64,000 nucleotides of DNA from positions 1 to 64,000 of the IMG/VR virus record IMGVR_UViG_3300028377_000007. One strand, 5' to 3'. This stretch comes from a virus. The notes below the pieces were generated by a model. The model was not told the origin of the DNA, made no database searches, and saw only the letters and a program-made list of their open reading frames with translations. A program made the position numbers and the translations under genes. This document shows positions 37,949 to 63,740 of this stretch, one piece after another (the stretch's first letter is position 1; each line of letters starts with the position of its first letter).

Positions 37949-39166
37949 TCATATTTTTAAGATATAAACTCTTGATTTTTTGTTAAATTCCTGCTTCACA
38001 GAACAGCTAACCAAACTTTCGTTTGATGAACTCTGTTCTCCACAGGCCGACACGGTAGAGCTTACCGCCAAATTCTTTAAATTGATAGAGGCATTAAAAT
38101 CCCTATCCATTTTATTGTCACACACCTTACACTCAAATACTCTATCCGTCAAGGTCAGACTTTCGTTTTTCCATCCGCAGCATGAACACAATTTAGAGCT
38201 AGCGAAGAAAGTATCGGCAAAGATAACTTTTCTATTGCTCCATTTTGCTTTATATTCGACCTGACGACGAAATTCGAATAGTCCAACATCACTGATAGCT
38301 TGCGCCAAACAATGATTCTTCATCATATTGCTTACTTTCAAATCTTCTAAAACTATTGTTTTATTTTCACGAACAATTTTAGTGGTTATTTTATGCAAGC
38401 AATCTTTACGAATATTTGATATGTGATTGTGTAGTTTTGCTAATTTTTGTTTTGCTTTTCCATAGTTTTTACTTCCTTTTTTCTTTCTTGATAATTGACG
38501 TTGTTTGAGCTTTAATTTATTGAGATTCTTCTTTAATGCTTTGGGATTTTCGTAAGTCGTCCCGTCTGAGCAAGTAGCCAGAGTCTTAATGCCTAAATCA
38601 ACTCCAATTACATCATTAATGGCGTTTGTAGGCTCTCTATCGGGCGTTTCTACTTGAACCGACACAAACCATCTGCCAGCTTTCTTGGACACTGTAGCAG
38701 ATAAGATTTTACAATCGGTTGGAATATAATCTTTTTCGGCTAATTTCAGCTTACCGATTCGCGGCAATTTAATACATCCAGATTCAACCGAAATTGCTCC
38801 ATCCAATCTAAAAGATTGTTTGTCATTCTTTTTGGATTTGAATTTCGGGAACCCTTTCTTGCCTTTAACTTTTTTCTTGCAACGAGTGAAGAAATTTTGA
38901 AATGCTTTATCACAATCTCTTAATGCGTTTTGTGGCGAACTTTTGCTTGAATTATACATCCAAGGAATATCGGTTTTCTTTAGTTTGTTTAATTCTCTAT
39001 GAAGTTCAATAGCATTAGGGGTTTTCTCTTTCTTATCAAATGCCTCTTTCTTGATATTTAAAGCCCAATTATAAGCAAAACGCGCCGCGCCCAAAGATTT
39101 CATCAGGTCGGTTTTTTGTGCATTGTTGGTCACTACAATCTCGGTTTTATATGCTCGTAAAATCAT
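37949..39166 (-). CDS. tnpB: RNA-guided endonuclease TnpB
   Basis: N-terminal HTH (RAYK, ARFAYNWAL); RuvC I GVDLG, II VLEDL, III DRDFNAS; zinc finger CSCCG..CKVC; catalytic residues intact. Confidence 0.95.
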   Translation of the reverse strand: MILRAYKTEIVVTNNAQKTDLMKSLGAARFAYNWALNIKKEAFDKKEKTPNAIELHRELNKLKKTDIPWMYNSSKSSPQNALRDCDKAFQNFFTRCKKKVKGKKGFPKFKSKKNDKQSFRLDGAISVESGCIKLPRIGKLKLAEKDYIPTDCKILSATVSKKAGRWFVSVQVETPDREPTNAINDVIGVDLGIKTLATCSDGTTYENPKALKKNLNKLKLKQRQLSRKKKGSKNYGKAKQKLAKLHNHISNIRKDCLHKITTKIVRENKTIVLEDLKVSNMMKNHCLAQAISDVGLFEFRRQVEYKAKWSNRKVIFADTFFASSKLCSCCGWKNESLTLTDRVFECKVCDNKMDRDFNASINLKNLAVSSTVSACGEQSSSNESLVSCSVKQEFNKKSRVYILKI

Positions 39167-41814: not shown

Positions 41815-43524
41815 TTACATTATACTTTTAATACTTGTTTTATATTTTTTTGCGATTGGGATATTTCGGCCAAAACCAAAACTTCTTTTATTAACTCTTA
41901 AAATTGGCGGCATGATTCTCCTTTTGTACTCATTTTTCTCCACCATATTAATTATTTTTTCGATTTTGTCAATGGAAATTTCCTTAATTGCAGAAAAACA
42001 CTGTTCTTTTTCTTTGAAACTAAGTAAATCCCCCTCTAAATATAATTTTAAAACATTATCTAAAATATGATAAGGCGGTAGACTATCAGTGTCAACTTGC
42101 CCCCCCCATAATTCCGCGCTCGGTTCTTTATCAATAACAGATTTTGGGACAACTTCACAACCATAATAATTATTCATCCATTTTGCGAGAGTATATACCT
42201 CTGTTTTGTAAAGATCCCCTATAACAGAAATTCCCCCAACAGTATCCCCTAAAATTGAAAAATACCCCATAGAAGACTCTGATTTATTACTCGTATTTAA
42301 TACTAAAGCCCCAAAATCATTGGAATATTCCATTAATTTTCTTGCGCGAATTCTTGGTTGAATATTCTCAATTGTTAATCTCTTGGGCTGTTGAAATGTT
42401 TCTGTGTAATTTTTAATTGCCAACTCTACTTCTTCGCCGATTGGCATTGTATATAAATTAATACCCAACTCATCACATTGCTTTTTGCTATCTGTGATAC
42501 TTCCTTCGCTAGAAAATTTTGATGGCATTGTAATACACTCAATATTATCTTCGCCTAATATTTTAGCTGCTAAAGCAATTACTAAAGCCGAATCAATTCC
42601 CCCACTCGCTCCGACAACAGCTTTTGTGAAGCCATTTTTCCGAAAATAATCTTTAAGTCCGATTTCTAAAGAATTAAAAATATAAGTATATTTGTCGGAA
42701 GTAACCGTACTAATTTGTGTATTAGGAGATTTTGTACTTACAACTTGGGGAGATTTTGTACTTACAACTTGATTTGCTTCTCTAATTTCTTCTCTAAATC
42801 CGCACATAGTAATAACATCATCCCCATCAACATAAAAAGAATGCCCATCAAAAATTAATTCGTCATTTCCGCCGACTTGATTAACATAAACAAACGGAAC
42901 CTTATAAATTTTAGAAAGCTTTCGATACATATCATAACGGTCATTATGTTTAAGAATATTACTAGGAGAAGCGTTTAGGGTTATAATGGCTTCGATATTT
43001 TCGCTAGAATTTTTATACGGGGAAAGGGGCTCTGCATTGTATATTTTTCTACTAACAAAATTAGAATCATCAAAACAATCTTCGCATATTAAGATTCCAA
43101 CATCTCCATATTTACTATTGAAAACAACGCCGCTTTCTTTCCCAACTTCAAAGTATCTGCTTTCATCAAAGATATTATAAGTTGGTAACAATTGTTTGTT
43201 GTATGTTTTGGAAATTTTTCCGTCTTTAATATGAACTGCCGAATTAAAAAGAGGTTTGCCTATTTTATTGTTTTCTGTGATGCATCCCACGATTATTTCT
43301 GCGGGATTATTAAACGTTAATTCTACAAGTTTTTCAAGATAACAGTTTTGTTCTTCAATAAAATCTTTACGAAGCAACAAATCATTCGGTGGATACCCTG
43401 TTAAAGCTAATTCGCTATATACATGAACCCCTTGGAAATTTGGACTGTAATTTTGCTTTATTTTTAGAAAATTATTTTCTATATCTCCAACTGTGAAGTT
43501 TAATTGGTGTATTTTGAGGTTCAT
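41815..43524 (-). CDS. nadE: glutamine-dependent NAD+ synthetase
   Basis: Nitrilase domain E-K-C triad (SELALTGY, YNKQLLP, ICED) plus synthetase motifs SGGIDS, ENIQ.RIR, NKSE, DLYKT, PSAEL. Confidence 0.96.
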   Translation of the reverse strand: MNLKIHQLNFTVGDIENNFLKIKQNYSPNFQGVHVYSELALTGYPPNDLLLRKDFIEEQNCYLEKLVELTFNNPAEIIVGCITENNKIGKPLFNSAVHIKDGKISKTYNKQLLPTYNIFDESRYFEVGKESGVVFNSKYGDVGILICEDCFDDSNFVSRKIYNAEPLSPYKNSSENIEAIITLNASPSNILKHNDRYDMYRKLSKIYKVPFVYVNQVGGNDELIFDGHSFYVDGDDVITMCGFREEIREANQVVSTKSPQVVSTKSPNTQISTVTSDKYTYIFNSLEIGLKDYFRKNGFTKAVVGASGGIDSALVIALAAKILGEDNIECITMPSKFSSEGSITDSKKQCDELGINLYTMPIGEEVELAIKNYTETFQQPKRLTIENIQPRIRARKLMEYSNDFGALVLNTSNKSESSMGYFSILGDTVGGISVIGDLYKTEVYTLAKWMNNYYGCEVVPKSVIDKEPSAELWGGQVDTDSLPPYHILDNVLKLYLEGDLLSFKEKEQCFSAIKEISIDKIEKIINMVEKNEYKRRIMPPILRVNKRSFGFGRNIPIAKKYKTSIKSIM

Positions 43525-43525
43525 A

Positions 43526-43963
43526 TTATTGTAATTTTTCTTTAACCATAGAGGAAATTTTCTTAATGTCAACACTAATCCCGAATTTTTCCTTGATTTT
43601 CCCAATCACCTTGCCCATATCTCTCATAGACTCTGCCCCAACCTCTTTAATATATTGGTCTATCATATCTGGGTATTCAGATTCTAAAACTTTTTCTGGC
43701 AACAAATCGTCTAATACTTCTGATTTTTCAAAAAATAACAAAGACTCCGATGGTTTTTTATCTTTGAATAACTCATAAGAATCTAAGAATGCTTTCTTCT
43801 CTTTTTCGATAACAGAATAAATTTCGTCCTCTGAAAGCGTTTTGTTTTCTCTATTTTCCCTTTCTTGAATCGCGGATAAAACAGATTGGTATGCCAACAT
43901 TTTTGTTGGTTCTTTATTTTTGCGCGAAGCAAAGATATAGTCTTGGATTGTTTTTTTGTTCAT
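43526..43963 (-). CDS. GatB/YqeY domain protein
   Basis: E.K...S.E.F...E.EVL..LLP...MRDMGKVIG. Confidence 0.8.
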   Translation of the reverse strand: MNKKTIQDYIFASRKNKEPTKMLAYQSVLSAIQERENRENKTLSEDEIYSVIEKEKKAFLDSYELFKDKKPSESLLFFEKSEVLDDLLPEKVLESEYPDMIDQYIKEVGAESMRDMGKVIGKIKEKFGISVDIKKISSMVKEKLQ

Positions 43964-44057
43964 TTTTTTATTTTCCTTTCTTTATTAATTGTTTCTGCAA
44001 CCATAGAATGTATTTTAGATTCTTTCGACTAATACAAGCCTAACTGTTTCTAGCACT

Positions 44058-45179
44058 TCACTCATAATTTCTAATTATTAAATTTGTATAAGGAATCAAA
44101 GGCACCCCATATTCTGAATACTCTTGAAAATCAACTGTAATCACTTCGCCAATATATTTTTCTTTGTTTTCTAAAACCTCTCTTAAAAATTCCATTGTTC
44201 CACGAACATTAGACTCGAAAGTTTCTCCGTTGTCAAGCTCACAAACAATCTTTTTTGCACAACCGCCCCAGTTTCCTTTTCCCCCTAGAATATCAACAAT
44301 TTTAAACTCAGCGTCAATAAAGTTCTTTACTTTTAAAAGATCATGGGTTCTTTTGTGTTGATAAGGCATATCCTTGATTCTAAGAATTGCACCTTCATGG
44401 CCTTCGTTGATAATTTTTTCGGCAAATTCTTTTACTTCTATTTCATCGTTTGCGTATTCCCAAATAACTTCTTTGCAGTATTTTGATTCTTTGGCTATTT
44501 CTGTTATTTGCTGAAATCTTTTTTCATAAGGAACGCCTTCTTTCCCTTTAAAGTATCCGTCATAAACATAAAAACGAACTATTTCCTCTGATTCTTTTAT
44601 TAAATCATCTGTTAGATCTTTTTCTTTTCTTGTTACGGCTACTAATTTAATCAATCTATTTAAATTGTTGCGCAAGTCTTCGTTAAAAAGTTCCCCATCC
44701 AAAACTAAATCTGGATACTTTTCAAAAATAGGTTTTAAGGATTCTTTTATGTGTTTTATATTAAAAAATTCCTCCCCCTTTCTTGAGTTTGCGGAATCTT
44801 TACTTATTACGCATCTTACCCCGTTATATTTTATGTTCATTATAACGGGCCAAATGATTTCTTTTTTTCGATTTTTAAATGGTTTTGCTAAAACAGGTTG
44901 AATCCAAGACTCTTTATCTATGTCTTCAATGTTTTCGTAATGCTTTTGTTTCTTTTTCTTTTTGAATTTTGCCTCTGCTTCTATAAATGCTTGTTCTTCT
45001 GGAGTTGTTTCGTTCTTTTTACCGATATTTTTTACCTCGCAGAAAGTCGGTTTATCAATAACAATAGATCCACCTTGAATTCCATGTTCTGACCAGAATT
45101 TATTATCTTCGACTACAATAGTCCATTCTTGGATTGAGCCGCTTGTATTGCGCTTGTAAAGTGTTGGAAATTTTTTCAT
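44058..45179 (-). CDS. ATP-dependent DNA ligase
   Basis: P.LAK, KYNGVRC, SRKG, LDGEL, VYD, EGAILR, KR...LLKVK, OB domain. Confidence 0.93.
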   Translation of the reverse strand: MKKFPTLYKRNTSGSIQEWTIVVEDNKFWSEHGIQGGSIVIDKPTFCEVKNIGKKNETTPEEQAFIEAEAKFKKKKKQKHYENIEDIDKESWIQPVLAKPFKNRKKEIIWPVIMNIKYNGVRCVISKDSANSRKGEEFFNIKHIKESLKPIFEKYPDLVLDGELFNEDLRNNLNRLIKLVAVTRKEKDLTDDLIKESEEIVRFYVYDGYFKGKEGVPYEKRFQQITEIAKESKYCKEVIWEYANDEIEVKEFAEKIINEGHEGAILRIKDMPYQHKRTHDLLKVKNFIDAEFKIVDILGGKGNWGGCAKKIVCELDNGETFESNVRGTMEFLREVLENKEKYIGEVITVDFQEYSEYGVPLIPYTNLIIRNYE

Positions 45180-45254
45180 TATTTTAGTTCCTTGATTATC
45201 TTTTCTAATCTATCGAAAGATTTTCCTGTTATATTTGTAAGGCTGTAATTATTA

Positions 45255-46424
45255 TTAATAGTTTTCTATGGCGTGAATTAAATATTTAAGGTATAAAGGA
45301 TCTTCACAACTAGCCTTCCCAGAGTCAGCCGATAACTTTGCCACTGGTTGATCATTGTTCTTCGTAACCTTCATTACAATAGACGGAACTTTAATTCCAA
45401 CATCATTAGTTAAATCTGTTCCTATTCCAAAAATTGGCTCTATTTTCCCGCGACAATATTTTTCTATTTCAATTGCTTTTGGAATATTTAAGCCATCTGA
45501 GAATACAATTTTTTTAAACATAGGATCAATATTAAAATCTCTATACATTTTAACAATCATATCTGTATATTCAAAAGGACAACCACTGTCATGCCTTACT
45601 CCATCATACCCTTTTGCTAAGTCAAAGGAAAAATCCTTCAAAAACTTTTCATCCCCAAAGGTATCTGTCAAACAAATAGCTAATTTTCCCTTATATTGAT
45701 TTAACCATTGTTCAAAGATTTCTTTTTGGGAATTTTGAATTGGATATAAACTCTGAACGCCCATAAAAATTTCATGTCCCATTGTACCAATCGGAGTAGA
45801 GTCATATTTTCGCGCCAGATTAACATTTGAAGTCCCAGAAATAAGATTGTTTGAATTAAGCATAGAAAAGATATATTCTTGCCATTCCGCGCTGAATCTT
45901 CTTCTTGTTCCAAATTCTATTAAATTAATTTGGCTTTCTTTAAGGTACTTGATTTTTTCAATTATTTTTTCTGTACCATAATGTATTTCGAATGGAGTCC
46001 CATATTTAAAACTTTTCTCGCCATAAATTTCATTCACTATGCTCAAAACGATTGTCTCAAATAATATAACAGACAACCAACTACCTTTTGCTCGTAATTT
46101 CCAAGGCTCTGATTCATCATCGTTCTTTTCGAAAACCAATTGCGATGGATTAAATCTAAAATCTTGCAACCACCTTATAAAGCTATCGCTAAAATAACCC
46201 AAAGATTGCAAATATTTTTTTTCTTCATTAGTAAGTTTTAGGATTTTTAGTTTATTAAATTCTTCCAAAAGATCTGATGGCCTGATAATATTATAAAAAT
46301 CAGTGGCTTCCGCATTACGGCATTTAAACGTGTATTCAATTTCTACATTACTGAACCTATCATAAACCATTTGCGCAACGGTTAATTTATAAAGATCTAA
46401 ATCTAGTATGCTTTTTATAATCAT
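45255..46424 (-). CDS. pncB: nicotinate phosphoribosyltransferase
   Basis: DLYKLT, EFGTRRRFS, GTSNV, GTMGHE (phospho-His), LTDTFG, GVRHDSG, FSDGL, FGIGT, IVMK, AKLS. Confidence 0.95.
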   Translation of the reverse strand: MIIKSILDLDLYKLTVAQMVYDRFSNVEIEYTFKCRNAEATDFYNIIRPSDLLEEFNKLKILKLTNEEKKYLQSLGYFSDSFIRWLQDFRFNPSQLVFEKNDDESEPWKLRAKGSWLSVILFETIVLSIVNEIYGEKSFKYGTPFEIHYGTEKIIEKIKYLKESQINLIEFGTRRRFSAEWQEYIFSMLNSNNLISGTSNVNLARKYDSTPIGTMGHEIFMGVQSLYPIQNSQKEIFEQWLNQYKGKLAICLTDTFGDEKFLKDFSFDLAKGYDGVRHDSGCPFEYTDMIVKMYRDFNIDPMFKKIVFSDGLNIPKAIEIEKYCRGKIEPIFGIGTDLTNDVGIKVPSIVMKVTKNNDQPVAKLSADSGKASCEDPLYLKYLIHAIENY

Positions 46425-60292: not shown

Positions 60293-60778
60293 TTAGGTCC
60301 ACATTTGTTCTTTATATTTAACGATTTTTGTTAAATATTTCATGTCTTTTTCCTCTAGCTCTTTTTGAAATTCCTTCCATTCTCCGTAATTGACACTAAA
60401 AGAATTTTCTATTTTCTCCTCTAGAGCGGGTCTATCAACTTTGATATAATTGTAACATTCTTTTATAAAATCACCGAATTCTTTCCAAGGGGGTTCATCC
60501 ATAACCGTCATTTCAAAAGTTTTTTCTTCCTCAATAAAATGAACCACACACCCAAAAAGAAAATCTGTTATTAATTCTGGCTTATCGCACCATTCGTTGT
60601 AAGAAATATGTTTTTTGATCCATTTTTGGCGCGGATTAAAAAAGAATCTAATCTTCCATGCCCAATTTGTAAAATGTGTTGGAAAAATAAGTTCCCAACA
60701 CCAAAAAATAAACATCAATGGTTTTTCTATAATAAAGGGATACTCTCCGCAGATCAGTTTTAATTTTATGTTATACAT
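60293..60778 (-). CDS. hypothetical protein, paralog of 31462..32013
   Basis: Same shared motif as 31462..32013. Confidence 0.75.
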   Translation of the reverse strand: MYNIKLKLICGEYPFIIEKPLMFIFWCWELIFPTHFTNWAWKIRFFFNPRQKWIKKHISYNEWCDKPELITDFLFGCVVHFIEEEKTFEMTVMDEPPWKEFGDFIKECYNYIKVDRPALEEKIENSFSVNYGEWKEFQKELEEKDMKYLTKIVKYKEQMWT

Positions 60779-61019
60779 TTTCTTGTTTTATTATTTTGTC
60801 GTCGAACCATTCCCAGTTTTTTGAGAAAATTGGTATTTCCTTGTCCAATTCATCTTTGTAAATTGCCGATCCGCGTTTAATATGGGTTGCTAGATCGTTC
60901 CAGTTTTTGCCACTTTTTTGAAAAATCAATTCCTGTAATTCATCTGTGTTTTTATTATTGCATTCTTTGTGGCGTAATTTATCTGCCCAATTTTGCATTT
61001 TTTCTTTACTCGCTCTCAT
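60771..61019 (-). pseudogene. C-terminal relic of a Thg1-like tRNA-His guanylyltransferase
   Basis: HKE..NKN..ELQELIFQKSG.NWND.....KRG.....EIPIF; catalytic N-terminal domain absent. Confidence 0.65.
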
Positions 61020-61021
61020 TT

Positions 61022-61310
61022 CTAATACGCTATCGATTTTTTAACCTTTGTCAATGCTTTTCCCAAAAGATTTTGCCCATCCCAATTTTTGGAATCACAG
61101 TGAATTTCAGAAATATAATCCAATCCAATCCCTATCCCCCAAATTTTATCAATCGGCGATGCCTCTACAAATTCATCCCCCGAATTTATGAGAATTTTTC
61201 TTAGATGAGGATTCTGCGTGAACTTCAATAAATTCCCATAAAAAACAATCTTTTCTTTATGATTATCCCATGTTGATTGTTTGTAATCAAAAATTTGCCG
61301 CCCTATTCTC
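61022..61310 (-). pseudogene. N-terminally truncated NADAR (YbiA-like) protein
   Basis: RIGRQI......WD.....IV..GN..KF.QN..L...L......VEASP.D.IWGIG...W.GQNLLG; in-frame stop upstream and no N-terminal half. Confidence 0.85.
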
Positions 61311-61405
61311 CATTATGCGACCTTGCCTCAATTACATCAATTTTGTTTTGATTTGTTGAACAACCTATGACCGCAAATAATAATGTTAGTATAATATATT
61401 TCATT

Positions 61406-62776
61406 TTAAGTATATAGTTTGTAATAATAGTTTTCTTTTCCGCAAATTGATACTTTTATTTTTTTCTTTTTTATTCCGCCATACATTGATGATTTTTTTT
61501 CAATCATTGGCGCATACCCAACAACTCCGATTCCCGACGATGATTTAGAGGATTTTATATTTTTAGAAATTAAGAATTCCTGTAAATCGCTTGTGTTATT
61601 GCCATAAAATCTAGAGTTAAAAATATATTCTCCGTTGTCCAACAAATACACAATAGCTCTATTTTTTAATATGTGTCTATTTAATCTGCCGAACCTTCTT
61701 GTTTTTTCTGATACTTCGCCGCATATATAAACTCCTTTAATAAAAGAAAGAAATATCGGCGCATTAGAATTGCAACCACTACTTGAATAACAGCTCGTCC
61801 AACCATCGCCAAGATTCGACATATTTATCTTGTATAAAACATCATTCGTTATGATATACTTTTTATCATTAAATTTATAAAACTTTTGATCTAATTCAAA
61901 GTCTTCTAATTCATAAGTTTTTAGAATATATTTTATATTATTCTTTTTTCTGGATAAATATTGTTTTAGAATGTCTATCTGTTTTTTTTGTTGTATTATT
62001 TTCTTTGAGCTTGTCGGGATTTTTAATTTTGAAAATTCTAGTAGCCCATTTAAAGAATCTTCATTTTTTTGAAATCTTGCTGCTCGTATTTTTCTTTTTG
62101 TTTTTCTTCCAACATGAATTTCTGAATCAACTTTTATGCCAGTGATATTTCGCCTTCCGTATTTTGAGCTTTGGAAGTGTATTTTCTTTTTATTGGATTT
62201 AAAGCCCACTTTAGAAATTATATTTGGAATATTATTTTTTAAAAATTCAAAAATTGTTTTTTCAGAATGATCTACTAAGAATTTTTCATTTTCACTTTCT
62301 TTGTATGAAAAAGATAAATCATCTGCGTATCTTGTATAAACAATATCTAATTTATGTTTTTTAATAAACCGCAAAATAGCCCGATCTAATTTCAAGGCTG
62401 CTATATTTGCCACAAGTGGGCTTGTCGGCAATCCCTGCCTCGGCGCTAAGTCTATAAAACATTTATTTATTAAATCGTCGCTTATTAATTGTTTAACCAT
62501 ATTTGGTTTTACCGAATCAAAAAAATCTGTCAAATCAAAATTAACAGTGTAATCATATCCTTTGTGGCAAATAGAATTTGTTATAATTGATCTTTTTGGG
62601 ATAAAGCCGTGAACTATAATGTTCTTTGTTGCCCCTAAAATAATCTTTTCTTGCGCGAAAAAACATTCTTCTAGTTCTGAGAGATATTCTTGGTATTTGT
62701 AAGATTCAGAACCAGACAATGAATATATCGTTCTATATTCTCCCTTTGTTTTTTTTGGTATTTTTATTATTTTCAT
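61406..62776 (-). CDS. retron-type reverse transcriptase with a ~190-aa C-terminal extra domain
   Basis: IPKK..G.YR.I, HGF...RS...NSICH (region X NAxxH), DL.DFF.S, QGLPTSP..AN, YTRYADD, ITG (region Y VTG). Confidence 0.9.
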   Translation of the reverse strand: MKIIKIPKKTKGEYRTIYSLSGSESYKYQEYLSELEECFFAQEKIILGATKNIIVHGFIPKRSIITNSICHKGYDYTVNFDLTDFFDSVKPNMVKQLISDDLINKCFIDLAPRQGLPTSPLVANIAALKLDRAILRFIKKHKLDIVYTRYADDLSFSYKESENEKFLVDHSEKTIFEFLKNNIPNIISKVGFKSNKKKIHFQSSKYGRRNITGIKVDSEIHVGRKTKRKIRAARFQKNEDSLNGLLEFSKLKIPTSSKKIIQQKKQIDILKQYLSRKKNNIKYILKTYELEDFELDQKFYKFNDKKYIITNDVLYKINMSNLGDGWTSCYSSSGCNSNAPIFLSFIKGVYICGEVSEKTRRFGRLNRHILKNRAIVYLLDNGEYIFNSRFYGNNTSDLQEFLISKNIKSSKSSSGIGVVGYAPMIEKKSSMYGGIKKKKIKVSICGKENYYYKLYT

Positions 62777-62798
62777 TCGCTATTCGCGAATAGCGAAT

Positions 62799-62985
62799 TA
62801 AGAATTTTTATATGCTATAATAACTATATTAAATATATAATTAGGCGGAGCGATTAATAGTGTAGAATAATTATATATTTAATATAGTTATTATAACAAA
62901 ATACATCGTAAAACTTTAATAAGCCGAGCTAGACGATAACATCTAAGGCAATAAAGTCTCCTTTTATTCCATATAAATTTATTCC
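62799..62985 (-). ncRNA. putative retron msr-msd RNA
   Basis: Imperfect hairpin 62913-62957 (msr-like), perfect 28-bp inverted repeat 62816-62843/62868-62895 (msd-like), flanking TTTATATG/CATATAAA pairing (a2/a1-like), directly upstream of the RT. Confidence 0.65.
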
Positions 62986-63158
62986 TTGTTGATTATTTTT
63001 AACATCTTGTCCTTTTCTGAAAAAGAAAGCTTACAGTTAGAATTAATAAATTGCGTATACTGCCAATCTTCCATAAAAACTGGTATTTTTTTAGATAGAT
63101 CTTTTCTGCCTAGTGACGACAAGAAGATCTTTAATTTTTTTTGTTTATTTGCTGACAT
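62979..63158 (-). CDS. 59-aa protein heading the RT operon (not in the ORF track)
   Basis: MSANKQKKLKIFLSSLGRKDLSKKIPVFMEDWQYTQFINSNCKLSFSEKDKMLKIINKE; TTGACT 29 nt upstream. Confidence 0.65.
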   Translation of the reverse strand: MSANKQKKLKIFLSSLGRKDLSKKIPVFMEDWQYTQFINSNCKLSFSEKDKMLKIINKE

Positions 63159-63200
63159 GGTTTGTATATTGCTGTTTTTTTTGAAGGAGTCAAGAGAGAA

Positions 63201-63740
63201 TTAACGATATTCTTCTTTAAAAAGTCTCCATTTTTTTGAGTCGATTTCTTTTTCGCCGCTGTCGATTTTTCTAATTACCTCAATAGCATCTACCACAGAA
63301 GAGTAAATATAATTATGTTGAAGCATCCAAAAAATCCAAAAAGGGCATTCCTTCTTTCCTTCTCCCCAAACAAAGAATATAGGTTTTTGGCATCTGTTAG
63401 CCCAAGATAATTCTTCTATTGTACCAATGGTAAAAGTTTTTTTCTCGAATACGCAAAGAACAAAATCACAGCGATCAATTAATGCTAAATCCTGTCGGCG
63501 AATATCTTTATAATCTGCAATTTTTTCATACTGCTCATTTTCACGGTATTGTTTTAGTAGATCATGTGTTTCGCTACTTTCTTCAATAAATCCTTCGTAT
63601 GGTCTATTATAATGGTCCCATACAACAATATTCATTTTTGATAATTCTTTTTTTATCTCTTGTCTTAATTGTTTGCCCCTTTCATTATCAGACTCCATTG
63701 GCCCAATGACTACTGTTTTTGTATTTTTTAATTTGTTCAT
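63201..63740 (-). CDS. nucleoside 2-deoxyribosyltransferase-like protein
   Basis: VIGPME, DLALIDRCDF, GTIEEL..A....KP. Confidence 0.8.
   Translation of the reverse strand: MNKLKNTKTVVIGPMESDNERGKQLRQEIKKELSKMNIVVWDHYNRPYEGFIEESSETHDLLKQYRENEQYEKIADYKDIRRQDLALIDRCDFVLCVFEKKTFTIGTIEELSWANRCQKPIFFVWGEGKKECPFWIFWMLQHNYIYSSVVDAIEVIRKIDSGEKEIDSKKWRLFKEEYR

Follow-up and report, generated by a model that had tools for sequence, protein, structure and literature searches.

A Probable Single-Gene Retron of an Unclassified Type in a Large T4-like Phage

Introduction

The stretch of viral DNA analysed here, called the window below, is 64,000 nucleotides (nt) long and constitutes the first 64 kb of a linear, 87-kb IMG/VR virus record (IMGVR_UViG_3300028377_000007) with a completeness estimate of 59%. 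Near the end of the window, on the minus strand, lies a locus that looks like an unclassified variant of the retron, a known anti-phage system, residing in a virus instead of a bacterium. It is composed of a gene for a reverse transcriptase (RT) whose product continues into an additional C-terminal domain, and of a sequence directly upstream that is predicted to fold like the non-coding RNA (ncRNA) of retrons, which includes the msr part and the msd part, the latter being the template of the multicopy single-stranded DNA (msDNA). The locus was singled out in a prediction made from the sequence alone, referred to here as the original prediction. The features of the locus and of its surroundings are collected in Table 1, with open reading frame abbreviated as ORF and amino acids as aa. 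The RT, the upstream RNA and the fused domain are described in turn, followed by the neighbouring genes, the phage and the interpretation.

Table 1. Features of the retron locus and its surroundings (positions in the window)
Feature	Position	Strand	Evidence or remark
RT ORF, 456 aa, intact	61406-62776	(-)	start agrees with the N-termini of 31 homologs
RT domain with thumb and region Y, aa 1 to ~250	62027..62776	(-)	Pfam, PADLOC, NCBIfam, PDB, AlphaFold
'GWTSC' domain, aa ~296-456	61409..61891	(-)	32-member alignment, phmmer, profile search, models
a1, 5' arm of terminal inverted repeat, TTTATATG	62970..62977	(-)	fold, sequence; stop of the 59-aa ORF abuts
Candidate branching G, first base past the a1/a2 duplex	62969	(-)	sequence; putative primer
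msr-like imperfect hairpin, 51 nt; 9-bp outer stem, 3+7-bp inner hairpin	62910..62960	(-)	minimum-free-energy and centroid folds agree
msd-like hairpin, perfect 30-bp almost pure A/T stem, 24-nt loop	62814..62897	(-)	predicted msDNA template
a2, 3' arm of terminal inverted repeat, CATATAAA	62807..62814	(-)	ends 31 nt before the RT ATG
Perfect 24-nt palindrome, 10-bp hairpin, 4-nt loop	62775..62798	(-)	unique in the 87-kb record
59-aa ORF, orphan	62979..63158	(-)	ORF list
TTGACT, -35-like hexamer 5' of the 59-aa ORF	63188..63193	(-)	sequence
33-aa ORF, lipoprotein-like signal MKYIILTLLFAVIGC...	61306..61404	(-)	begins 2 nt past the RT stop
DNA ligase gene between NAD synthetase and nicotinamide phosphoribosyltransferase-like genes	41815-46424		
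Insertion sequence (IS)-type element, 405-aa ORF	37949-39166	(-)	phage 'transposase' family phrog_506, 3.9e-120

The Reverse Transcriptase

ORF 61406-62776 is, by its sequence and its modelled structure, an intact RT of the retron clade. A Pfam RVT_1 match covers aa 6-203. Retron RTs are characterized by region X, with the motif NAXXH in which H is most conserved, and by region Y, with the motif VTG in which G is most conserved; region X is placed between RT2 and RT3, and the VTG of region Y in RT7 (PMC7736814). The window's RT reads NSICH at aa 67-71, YADD at aa 150-153 and ITG at aa 211-213. In a 32-member alignment of the family, the consensus of region X is NAxxH and H71 is invariant, as are G213 of ITG and Y150, D152 and D153 of YADD, with A151 nearly so.

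Searches with whole models gave the same assignment. The 25 best PADLOC matches are all retron RT models (1e-37 to 1e-23), RT-Protease_XI (1.1e-37) being followed by RT_XIII, RT-TIR_XII, III-A, X and I-C, and the models of defence-associated reverse transcriptases (DRT), abortive-infection (Abi) RTs and group II introns score much lower than the retron models. In NCBIfam the RT matches Retron_TIR (8.5e-33), Ec67_fus (3.8e-32) and St85_RT (1.6e-30), compared with 1.3e-8 for the group II intron RT, although the retron scores are far under the curated cut-offs (114 bits vs 600). All of the PDB chains matched by sequence (12/12) are retron RTs. The full-length AlphaFold model has a mean predicted local distance difference test (pLDDT) score of 89, with 85-98 in the RT domain, and in Foldseek its top 17 matches are retron RTs, with retron Eco2, Ec86, I-A, Ec83, Eco7 and Eco8 ahead of other RTs. 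As judged by small differences in hidden Markov model (HMM) scores, the RT may stand near clade 8, to which C-terminal fusions belong.

Among the best 120 whole-protein matches, about 70 cover more than 85% of the RT-fusion protein and are ~430 aa long. One of these homologs is a gene on the chromosome of Pelotomaculum thermopropionicum SI, contigs of up to 647 kb carry further ones, and the closest relatives (P0002 and P0003, 61-63% identity) are found on 68-kb and 19-kb contigs. A scan of IMG/VR by RT patterns returned other retron types and one member of the family (L002), which was also the sole return of a scan by C-terminal patterns, and a scan of genome contigs gave relatives of the RT domain only.

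The Upstream RNA and Its Counterparts in Homologous Loci

The sequence between the 59-aa ORF and the RT is predicted to form a retron-shaped RNA, that is, an a1/a2 repeat, a G, an msr hairpin and a long msd hairpin. When positions 62770-62990(-) (221 nt) were folded, the minimum free energy was -62.9 kcal/mol vs -34.1 +/- 4.1 kcal/mol for shuffled sequences (z -7.08), and none of 200 shuffles was as stable. The a1/a2 duplex is formed by pairing of 62977-62971 with 62813-62807, with an optional eighth pair G62970-C62814. In the msd-like hairpin, 62897-62868 pair with 62843-62814 around the loop 62867-62844, and no other inverted repeat of the window is as long or as perfect as this one of 30 bp. 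A search of the upstream RNA against Rfam gave only sub-threshold chance matches. A terminator scan returned nothing, and the msd-like hairpin is without a U-tract. The top sigma-70-like match in the region (TTGTTA-18-TATAAT, 10/12) falls at 62870-62899 (-), in the 5' arm of the msd-like hairpin, where it lies in sequence of 25% GC and may be due to chance.

A metagenome scan with the C-terminal alignment gave 15 loci of the family, and the RT start was located in 12 of them (~9 distinct). Directly 5' of the RT, the layout of a1, G, hairpin, long hairpin and a2 is present in five of the ~9 distinct homologous loci (L164, L166 with two tandem units, L171/L173, L172 and L175). The a1/a2 repeat of these loci has 9-20 bp, encloses a first hairpin and then a longer one, and ends with a2 8-70 nt before the RT start; moreover, the G after a1 occupies the same position as that of the window in all of them, including both units of L166. 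In L166 (1860-2157) the two tandem ncRNA units precede one RT, each having a1/a2, the G, a motif hairpin and a second hairpin, and their stems differ by compensatory changes.

In one subclade the tip of the first hairpin reads CNNG-N-GCG-NUU-CGC-CNNG. This tip hairpin covaries among the homologs, to which the figures are confined (97.6% of cells paired, 2 pairs changed on both sides), and when 1.67 Mb of other retron loci were searched on one strand, its motif occurred only 12 times. The msd loop of the window contains a 10-mer, TCGCTCCGCC, which was considered as a counterpart of the tip motif and was rejected as chance; two-mismatch matches to the motif number 36 in the window vs 29 expected.

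The original prediction had described a retron-type RT with NSICH, YADD and ITG, and an a2-G-msr-msd-a1 layout in front of it. The RT is indeed matched by retron models and structures at this place, and all elements of the layout were found. It had given the perfect stem 28 bp and the imperfect hairpin the span 62913-62957; both structures and the 24-nt loop are present, but the stem has 30 bp and the hairpin extends over 62960-62910. Two of the observations that it had named as speaking against a retron, an RT placed outside the retrons and homologs devoid of the upstream hairpin and of a1/a2 pairing, did not turn up: by model and structure scores, strong matches of the RT are to retron models and structures only, and relatives keep both the a1/a2 pairing and the upstream hairpins.

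The Fused C-Terminal Domain

The RT is separated from the C-terminal domain by a linker of low confidence in the AlphaFold model (aa ~251-295). The domain itself is modelled as an alpha/beta fold with long antiparallel strands (pLDDT 80-95 in the full-length model) and is kept across homologs of 31-63% identity in the 32-member alignment. Its invariant residues are D312, W326, S328, C329, R373, Y391 and G420, and its consensus is ITxDPxYxLGMSxxTTGWTSCM ... GVxRxxMxARxLVH ... YDRxYG. When the domain alone was searched by phmmer against 1.84 billion representatives, 31 matches were obtained, nearly all of them C-terminal in proteins of ~430 aa, and two of the 31 are low-complexity artefacts. A profile search limited to proteins of 81-382 aa gave 11 proteins (100-346 aa), several of which are on short contigs or carry RVT_1. 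The domain, encountered in metagenomes and in Pelotomaculum, thus appears to be almost confined to fusions with RTs of this clade.

The domain is not recognized by the collections searched. Pfam, run on the window and on each of the 32 members, found RVT_1 as the sole family in more than one member and left the C-terminal domain unrecognized, as did PHROGs and NCBIfam; PADLOC gave zero matches at E<=1 with the C-terminal 192 aa, a C-terminal profile matched nothing among PDB sequences at E<=10, and a domain-only model (pLDDT 73) found nothing in the PDB by Foldseek at E<=0.001. In addition, the C-terminal profile was not found in the 401 genomes searched, a sample of one Bacillota-type phylum. 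The PADLOC models of fusions with Toprim, DUF3800, a trypsin-like protease and TIR align to the RT part only, and these domains were rejected. The original prediction had not recognized the domain as a known retron effector, which agrees with these results, and the ITND, MS, WTSC, RAIVY and RFYG that it pointed out all fall in conserved columns.

As to the fold, GNAT-like and PcfJ-like proteins are weak leads. By VIA-align the 50 best rows are all GNAT, with Z 3.6-5.1, under the tool's stated noise level, and with root-mean-square deviations of 3.1-4.7 A over 84-112 residues at 1-12% identity; the acyl-CoA motif Q/RxxGxG/A is not evident in the 32-member alignment. In BFVD the matches are uncharacterized phage proteins (E 2e-3, probability 0.99), with a PcfJ phage protein at rank 12 (probability 0.30), and a language-model search gave PcfJ-like leads with scores of 0.84-0.87. 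The Pfam model of the PcfJ-like domain (PF14284) has no match in the record at E<=10 and none among the 32 members, and neither the PcfJ leads nor an EcoRI-methylase lead from the language-model search were borne out by HMMs. Furthermore, for the Pelotomaculum homolog the ESM Atlas model has template modelling (TM) scores of 0.71-0.76 to clusters of viral hypothetical proteins.

Other extended RTs were met in viral contigs. A 101-kb contig (L003:5992-7311) encodes a retron-type RT with 36% identity over aa 1-257 and another tail of ~190 aa; the 'GWRSS' of this tail was considered as a sign of relationship to the window's domain and was rejected (hhalign probability 0.3%). A 170-kb contig (L005) encodes an RT with a tail of ~110 aa. 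By their sequences, large phage contigs carry several kinds of extended retron RTs.

Neighbouring Genes and the Start of the RT

The original prediction proposed a dedicated TTGACT promoter and the 59-aa peptide as a partner of the RT, and neither is borne out. The hexamer is present at 63193-63188, but there is no usable -10 element; none acceptable was found 16-18 nt downstream of it, and the consensus promoter scan did not return this site. The 59-aa ORF has no match in Pfam, PADLOC or PHROG and has only its own cluster among 5.8 billion proteins, and an equivalent small ORF is not conserved in the loci of the family. Further upstream, a nucleoside deoxyribosyltransferase (NDT)-like ORF (63201-63740, 179 aa) was tried as a type II effector and rejected, since it matches no PADLOC retron effector or NDT model; it scores 28.3 bits (2.1e-6) against PF05014, for which the cut-off is 28.8, and it is without a DNA-binding part. 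In all family loci examined, an NDT-like neighbour beside the RT is absent.

The palindrome in front of the RT forms a hairpin that occludes the first two bases of the RT's start codon, and no Shine-Dalgarno (SD) sequence precedes the RT. This suggests that the hairpin may control translation of the RT, holding it low or timed. On the other side, the 33-aa ORF has no PADLOC match and its membership in the retron is doubtful. Past it, two short ORFs (60771-61228 (-)) have matches confined to C-terminal parts of longer phage families, namely positions 97-152 of 170 in phrog_1017 and positions 165-214 of 250 in the tRNA-His guanylyltransferase family; by these partial matches they look like gene remnants adjoining the retron.

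In four bacterial or metagenomic loci of the family (L161:4054-4911, L162:1871-2539, L164:3894-4925 and L166:727-1668) a conserved protein of ~285-343 aa is encoded near the RT-fusion gene. It has the motifs AHVDTV, GADDRAG, DxEExGG and H and a faint similarity to PepT/M20 peptidases, and in the bacterial versions it may have a partner role; no counterpart was found in the phage (tblastn E>=0.1).

The Phage and Its Variation

The record comes from a large T4-like phage that has a rich region of accessory genes, in which the retron cassette sits. The long ORFs of the window are all on the minus strand, GC is ~31%, three tRNA genes are present, and among the PHROG matches are rIIA, polynucleotide kinase, ATP-dependent DNA ligase, NAD synthetase, a nicotinamide phosphoribosyltransferase-like protein and an IS-type transposase. 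The GC of the cassette (28%) is similar to that of the phage. A DNA search against GenBank phages gave zero matches. An SD-like motif precedes only 15 of 65 long ORFs vs a background of 12%, which hints at an SD-poor host, for example one of the Bacteroidota.

Near-identical DNA is present in contigs of 24 lake-water or salt-lake metagenome runs of 2017-2019, and no RNA dataset is among the runs listed with the cassette. One contig spans 61305-63359 (2055 nt) with 3 differences. In contigs of four runs, four variants were seen in the RT (S23S, N279K, S404Y and C445Y) and none inside the ncRNA, and no contig joins across the cassette to give a cassette-less form. In three of the four runs a sequence of 28 nt stands in place of the 168 nt just past the RT (61137-61304), a replacement that fuses the 33-aa ORF in frame to the NADAR-like remnant downstream.

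Interpretation and Alternatives

The locus is probably a complete, working single-gene retron of an unclassified type in a large T4-like phage, and from the sequence and the models we would give this reading a probability of about 70%. In the proposed mechanism, the msr-msd-RT transcript would fold and the a1/a2 duplex would present the 2'-OH of G62969, at which the RT would prime and copy the 30-bp hairpin (62814-62897) into a branched, almost pure A/T msDNA of ~85-95 nt. By analogy with types I-C, XI and XII, the fused domain would be held inactive by the complex of RT and msDNA as long as no other element disturbs this complex or the msDNA, and once that happens the domain would act on the cell. 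The invariant Asp, Ser-Cys, two Arg and Tyr suggest that the domain may be an enzyme. In a lytic phage such a module would most likely be turned on rival phages or on other mobile elements that share the cell; for its use to the phage, we infer competitor exclusion as the first choice and counter-defence as the second. The phage holds an ordinary member of the family and no phage-specific derivative, because the RT-domain fusion also occurs on large bacterial contigs, including the Pelotomaculum chromosome; domestication by the phage, superinfection exclusion and a decoy msDNA were inferences of the original prediction. A bolder version is that the retron is the lytic phage's own weapon or shield, in which the RT-msDNA, with a new Cys/Ser-dependent enzyme domain fused to it, would exclude competitors or disarm host immunity, and the fused domain would define a new retron type with fold relatives that are mainly phage proteins; we put it forward tentatively and find it possible rather than probable.

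Several points weigh against a working retron. The a1/a2 duplex has only 8 bp and lies in a stretch of 23% GC, where a chance origin is possible. The tip motif is absent from the first hairpin of the window and of L164, so the layout is common to these loci and the sequence is not, and TCGCTCCGCC in the msd loop cannot form the hairpin of the homologs. With no SD sequence and a start codon buried in a hairpin, the RT may be poorly expressed. The term effector is applied to the fused domain by analogy, since the domain has no recognized fold or chemistry, and it is odd for a lytic phage to carry an abortive-infection toxin. According to a different reading, the RT works without a branched msDNA, like DRTs or type XI, and the hairpins are regulatory or terminator-like. 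The lack of an Rfam family, the short a1/a2 duplex and the TTGTTA-18-TATAAT inside the 5' arm of the long hairpin would all suit such an RT, and so would the best-scoring RT model, which is that of type XI, reported without recognizable ncRNA (PMC7736814). However, homologs keep the full layout with an a1/a2 of up to 20 bp, the hairpin is without a U-tract and the terminator scan was empty, and the DRT, Abi and group II models are far below the retron models, so that we consider this reading very improbable.

If the locus is a retron, its role may still be different from the one proposed. In counter-defence, the RT-msDNA would serve as a decoy or sponge, or the fused enzyme itself would act, and a host immune system would be neutralized, for example by titrating a nuclease or a DNA-end sensor or by replacing the antitoxin of a host retron. 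The cassette stands among cargo of the counter-defence type, namely the genes of NAD synthetase, the nicotinamide phosphoribosyltransferase-like protein, polynucleotide kinase and ligase, the A/T hairpin of its predicted msDNA is perfect and unusually long, and uncharacterized phage proteins make up most of the domain's fold relatives, all of which would agree with counter-defence. Nevertheless we regard it as unlikely; the same fusion with a similar RNA layout is present on large bacterial contigs and on the Pelotomaculum chromosome, and fits a defence module taken up whole by the phage, and there is no tie to a particular host system. Somewhat less likely still is a passenger, that is, a recently captured retron, neutral or decaying, with no role in the life cycle of the phage. 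Such a history is suggested by the NADAR-like C-terminal and Thg1-like remnants directly downstream, the 168-nt/28-nt replacement polymorphism just past the RT, the HNH gene and IS-like element nearby, the occluded RT start codon without SD, and the non-synonymous nature of 3/4 single-nucleotide polymorphisms in the RT. On the contrary, the frame of 456 codons is intact with every invariant residue of the family kept, the base composition is fully phage-like, the cassette persists in the 24 runs of 2017-2019 with no cassette-less joint in the four, and relatives at 61-63% identity exist on 68-kb and 19-kb contigs. A single-gene retron directed against competitors is the reading which we prefer.

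The fused domain would be a fifth RT-fused domain, conserved in more than 100 metagenomic proteins and missed by PADLOC, Pfam and NCBIfam, and would extend the retron catalogue and offer a new effector chemistry. Moreover, a retron kept in a large phage of the virulent type raises the question of the purpose of an abortive-infection-style module in a virus, phage-against-phage competition and counter-defence being possible answers. With a perfect hairpin of 30 bp as its predicted msDNA and with a single gene, the locus is also a compact candidate for retron-based DNA production tools.

Comparison with Known Systems

Thirteen retron types have been published and are classed by their effectors, and in types I-C, VII-A1, XI and XII the domains fused to the RT are Toprim, DUF3800, a protease and TIR. 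Types XII (RT-TIR; NF042941 'TIR domain-containing anti-phage reverse transcriptase') and XI (RT-trypsin-like protease) are, like the locus in the window, single polypeptides of an RT and a C-terminal domain, and their RT models score best for the window's RT; however, the matches end at ~aa 235-285, and the window's C-terminal domain is neither TIR nor protease. Both types belong to RT clade 8 of Mestre et al. 2020 (PMC7736814). For type XI retrons no recognizable ncRNA was reported (PMC7736814), whereas the window's RT has a predicted one. The closest solved RT by sequence (4e-13) is that of Retron-Eco1 (Ec86), type II-A3 (PDB 7v9x, 8qbk), which shares the classical layout of a1/a2, branching G and msd hairpin, and an NDT-like gene is also near the window's RT. 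Unlike the fused domain of the window, the effector of Ec86 is a separate NDT and DNA-binding protein.

Among phages, retron-type RTs are present in 27 of 50,697 GenBank phage records, and many more in IMG/VR contigs. Those of GenBank include Staphylococcus phages SA 1306 Kay, S6 and vB_StaM_SA1, Pseudomonas Pf phages and Klebsiella P2-like phages; they cover <=54% of the query and none reaches the C-terminal domain. In the library searched, no literature was found on the function of the retron-type RTs in GenBank phages, on this RT-domain fusion or on a retron in a large phage of the virulent type. In structure, the full-length model is matched best (E 5.5e-14) by Retron-Eco2 (Ec67), type I-C (PDB 9i2f, 9lm3), which is likewise an RT with a fused C-terminal effector; that effector, however, is a Toprim nuclease, and the aligned part (aa 6-295) is the RT only. 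Retron-Eco2 is carried by a prophage-like element. The Ec67 element is temperate, while the window belongs to a large T4-like phage.

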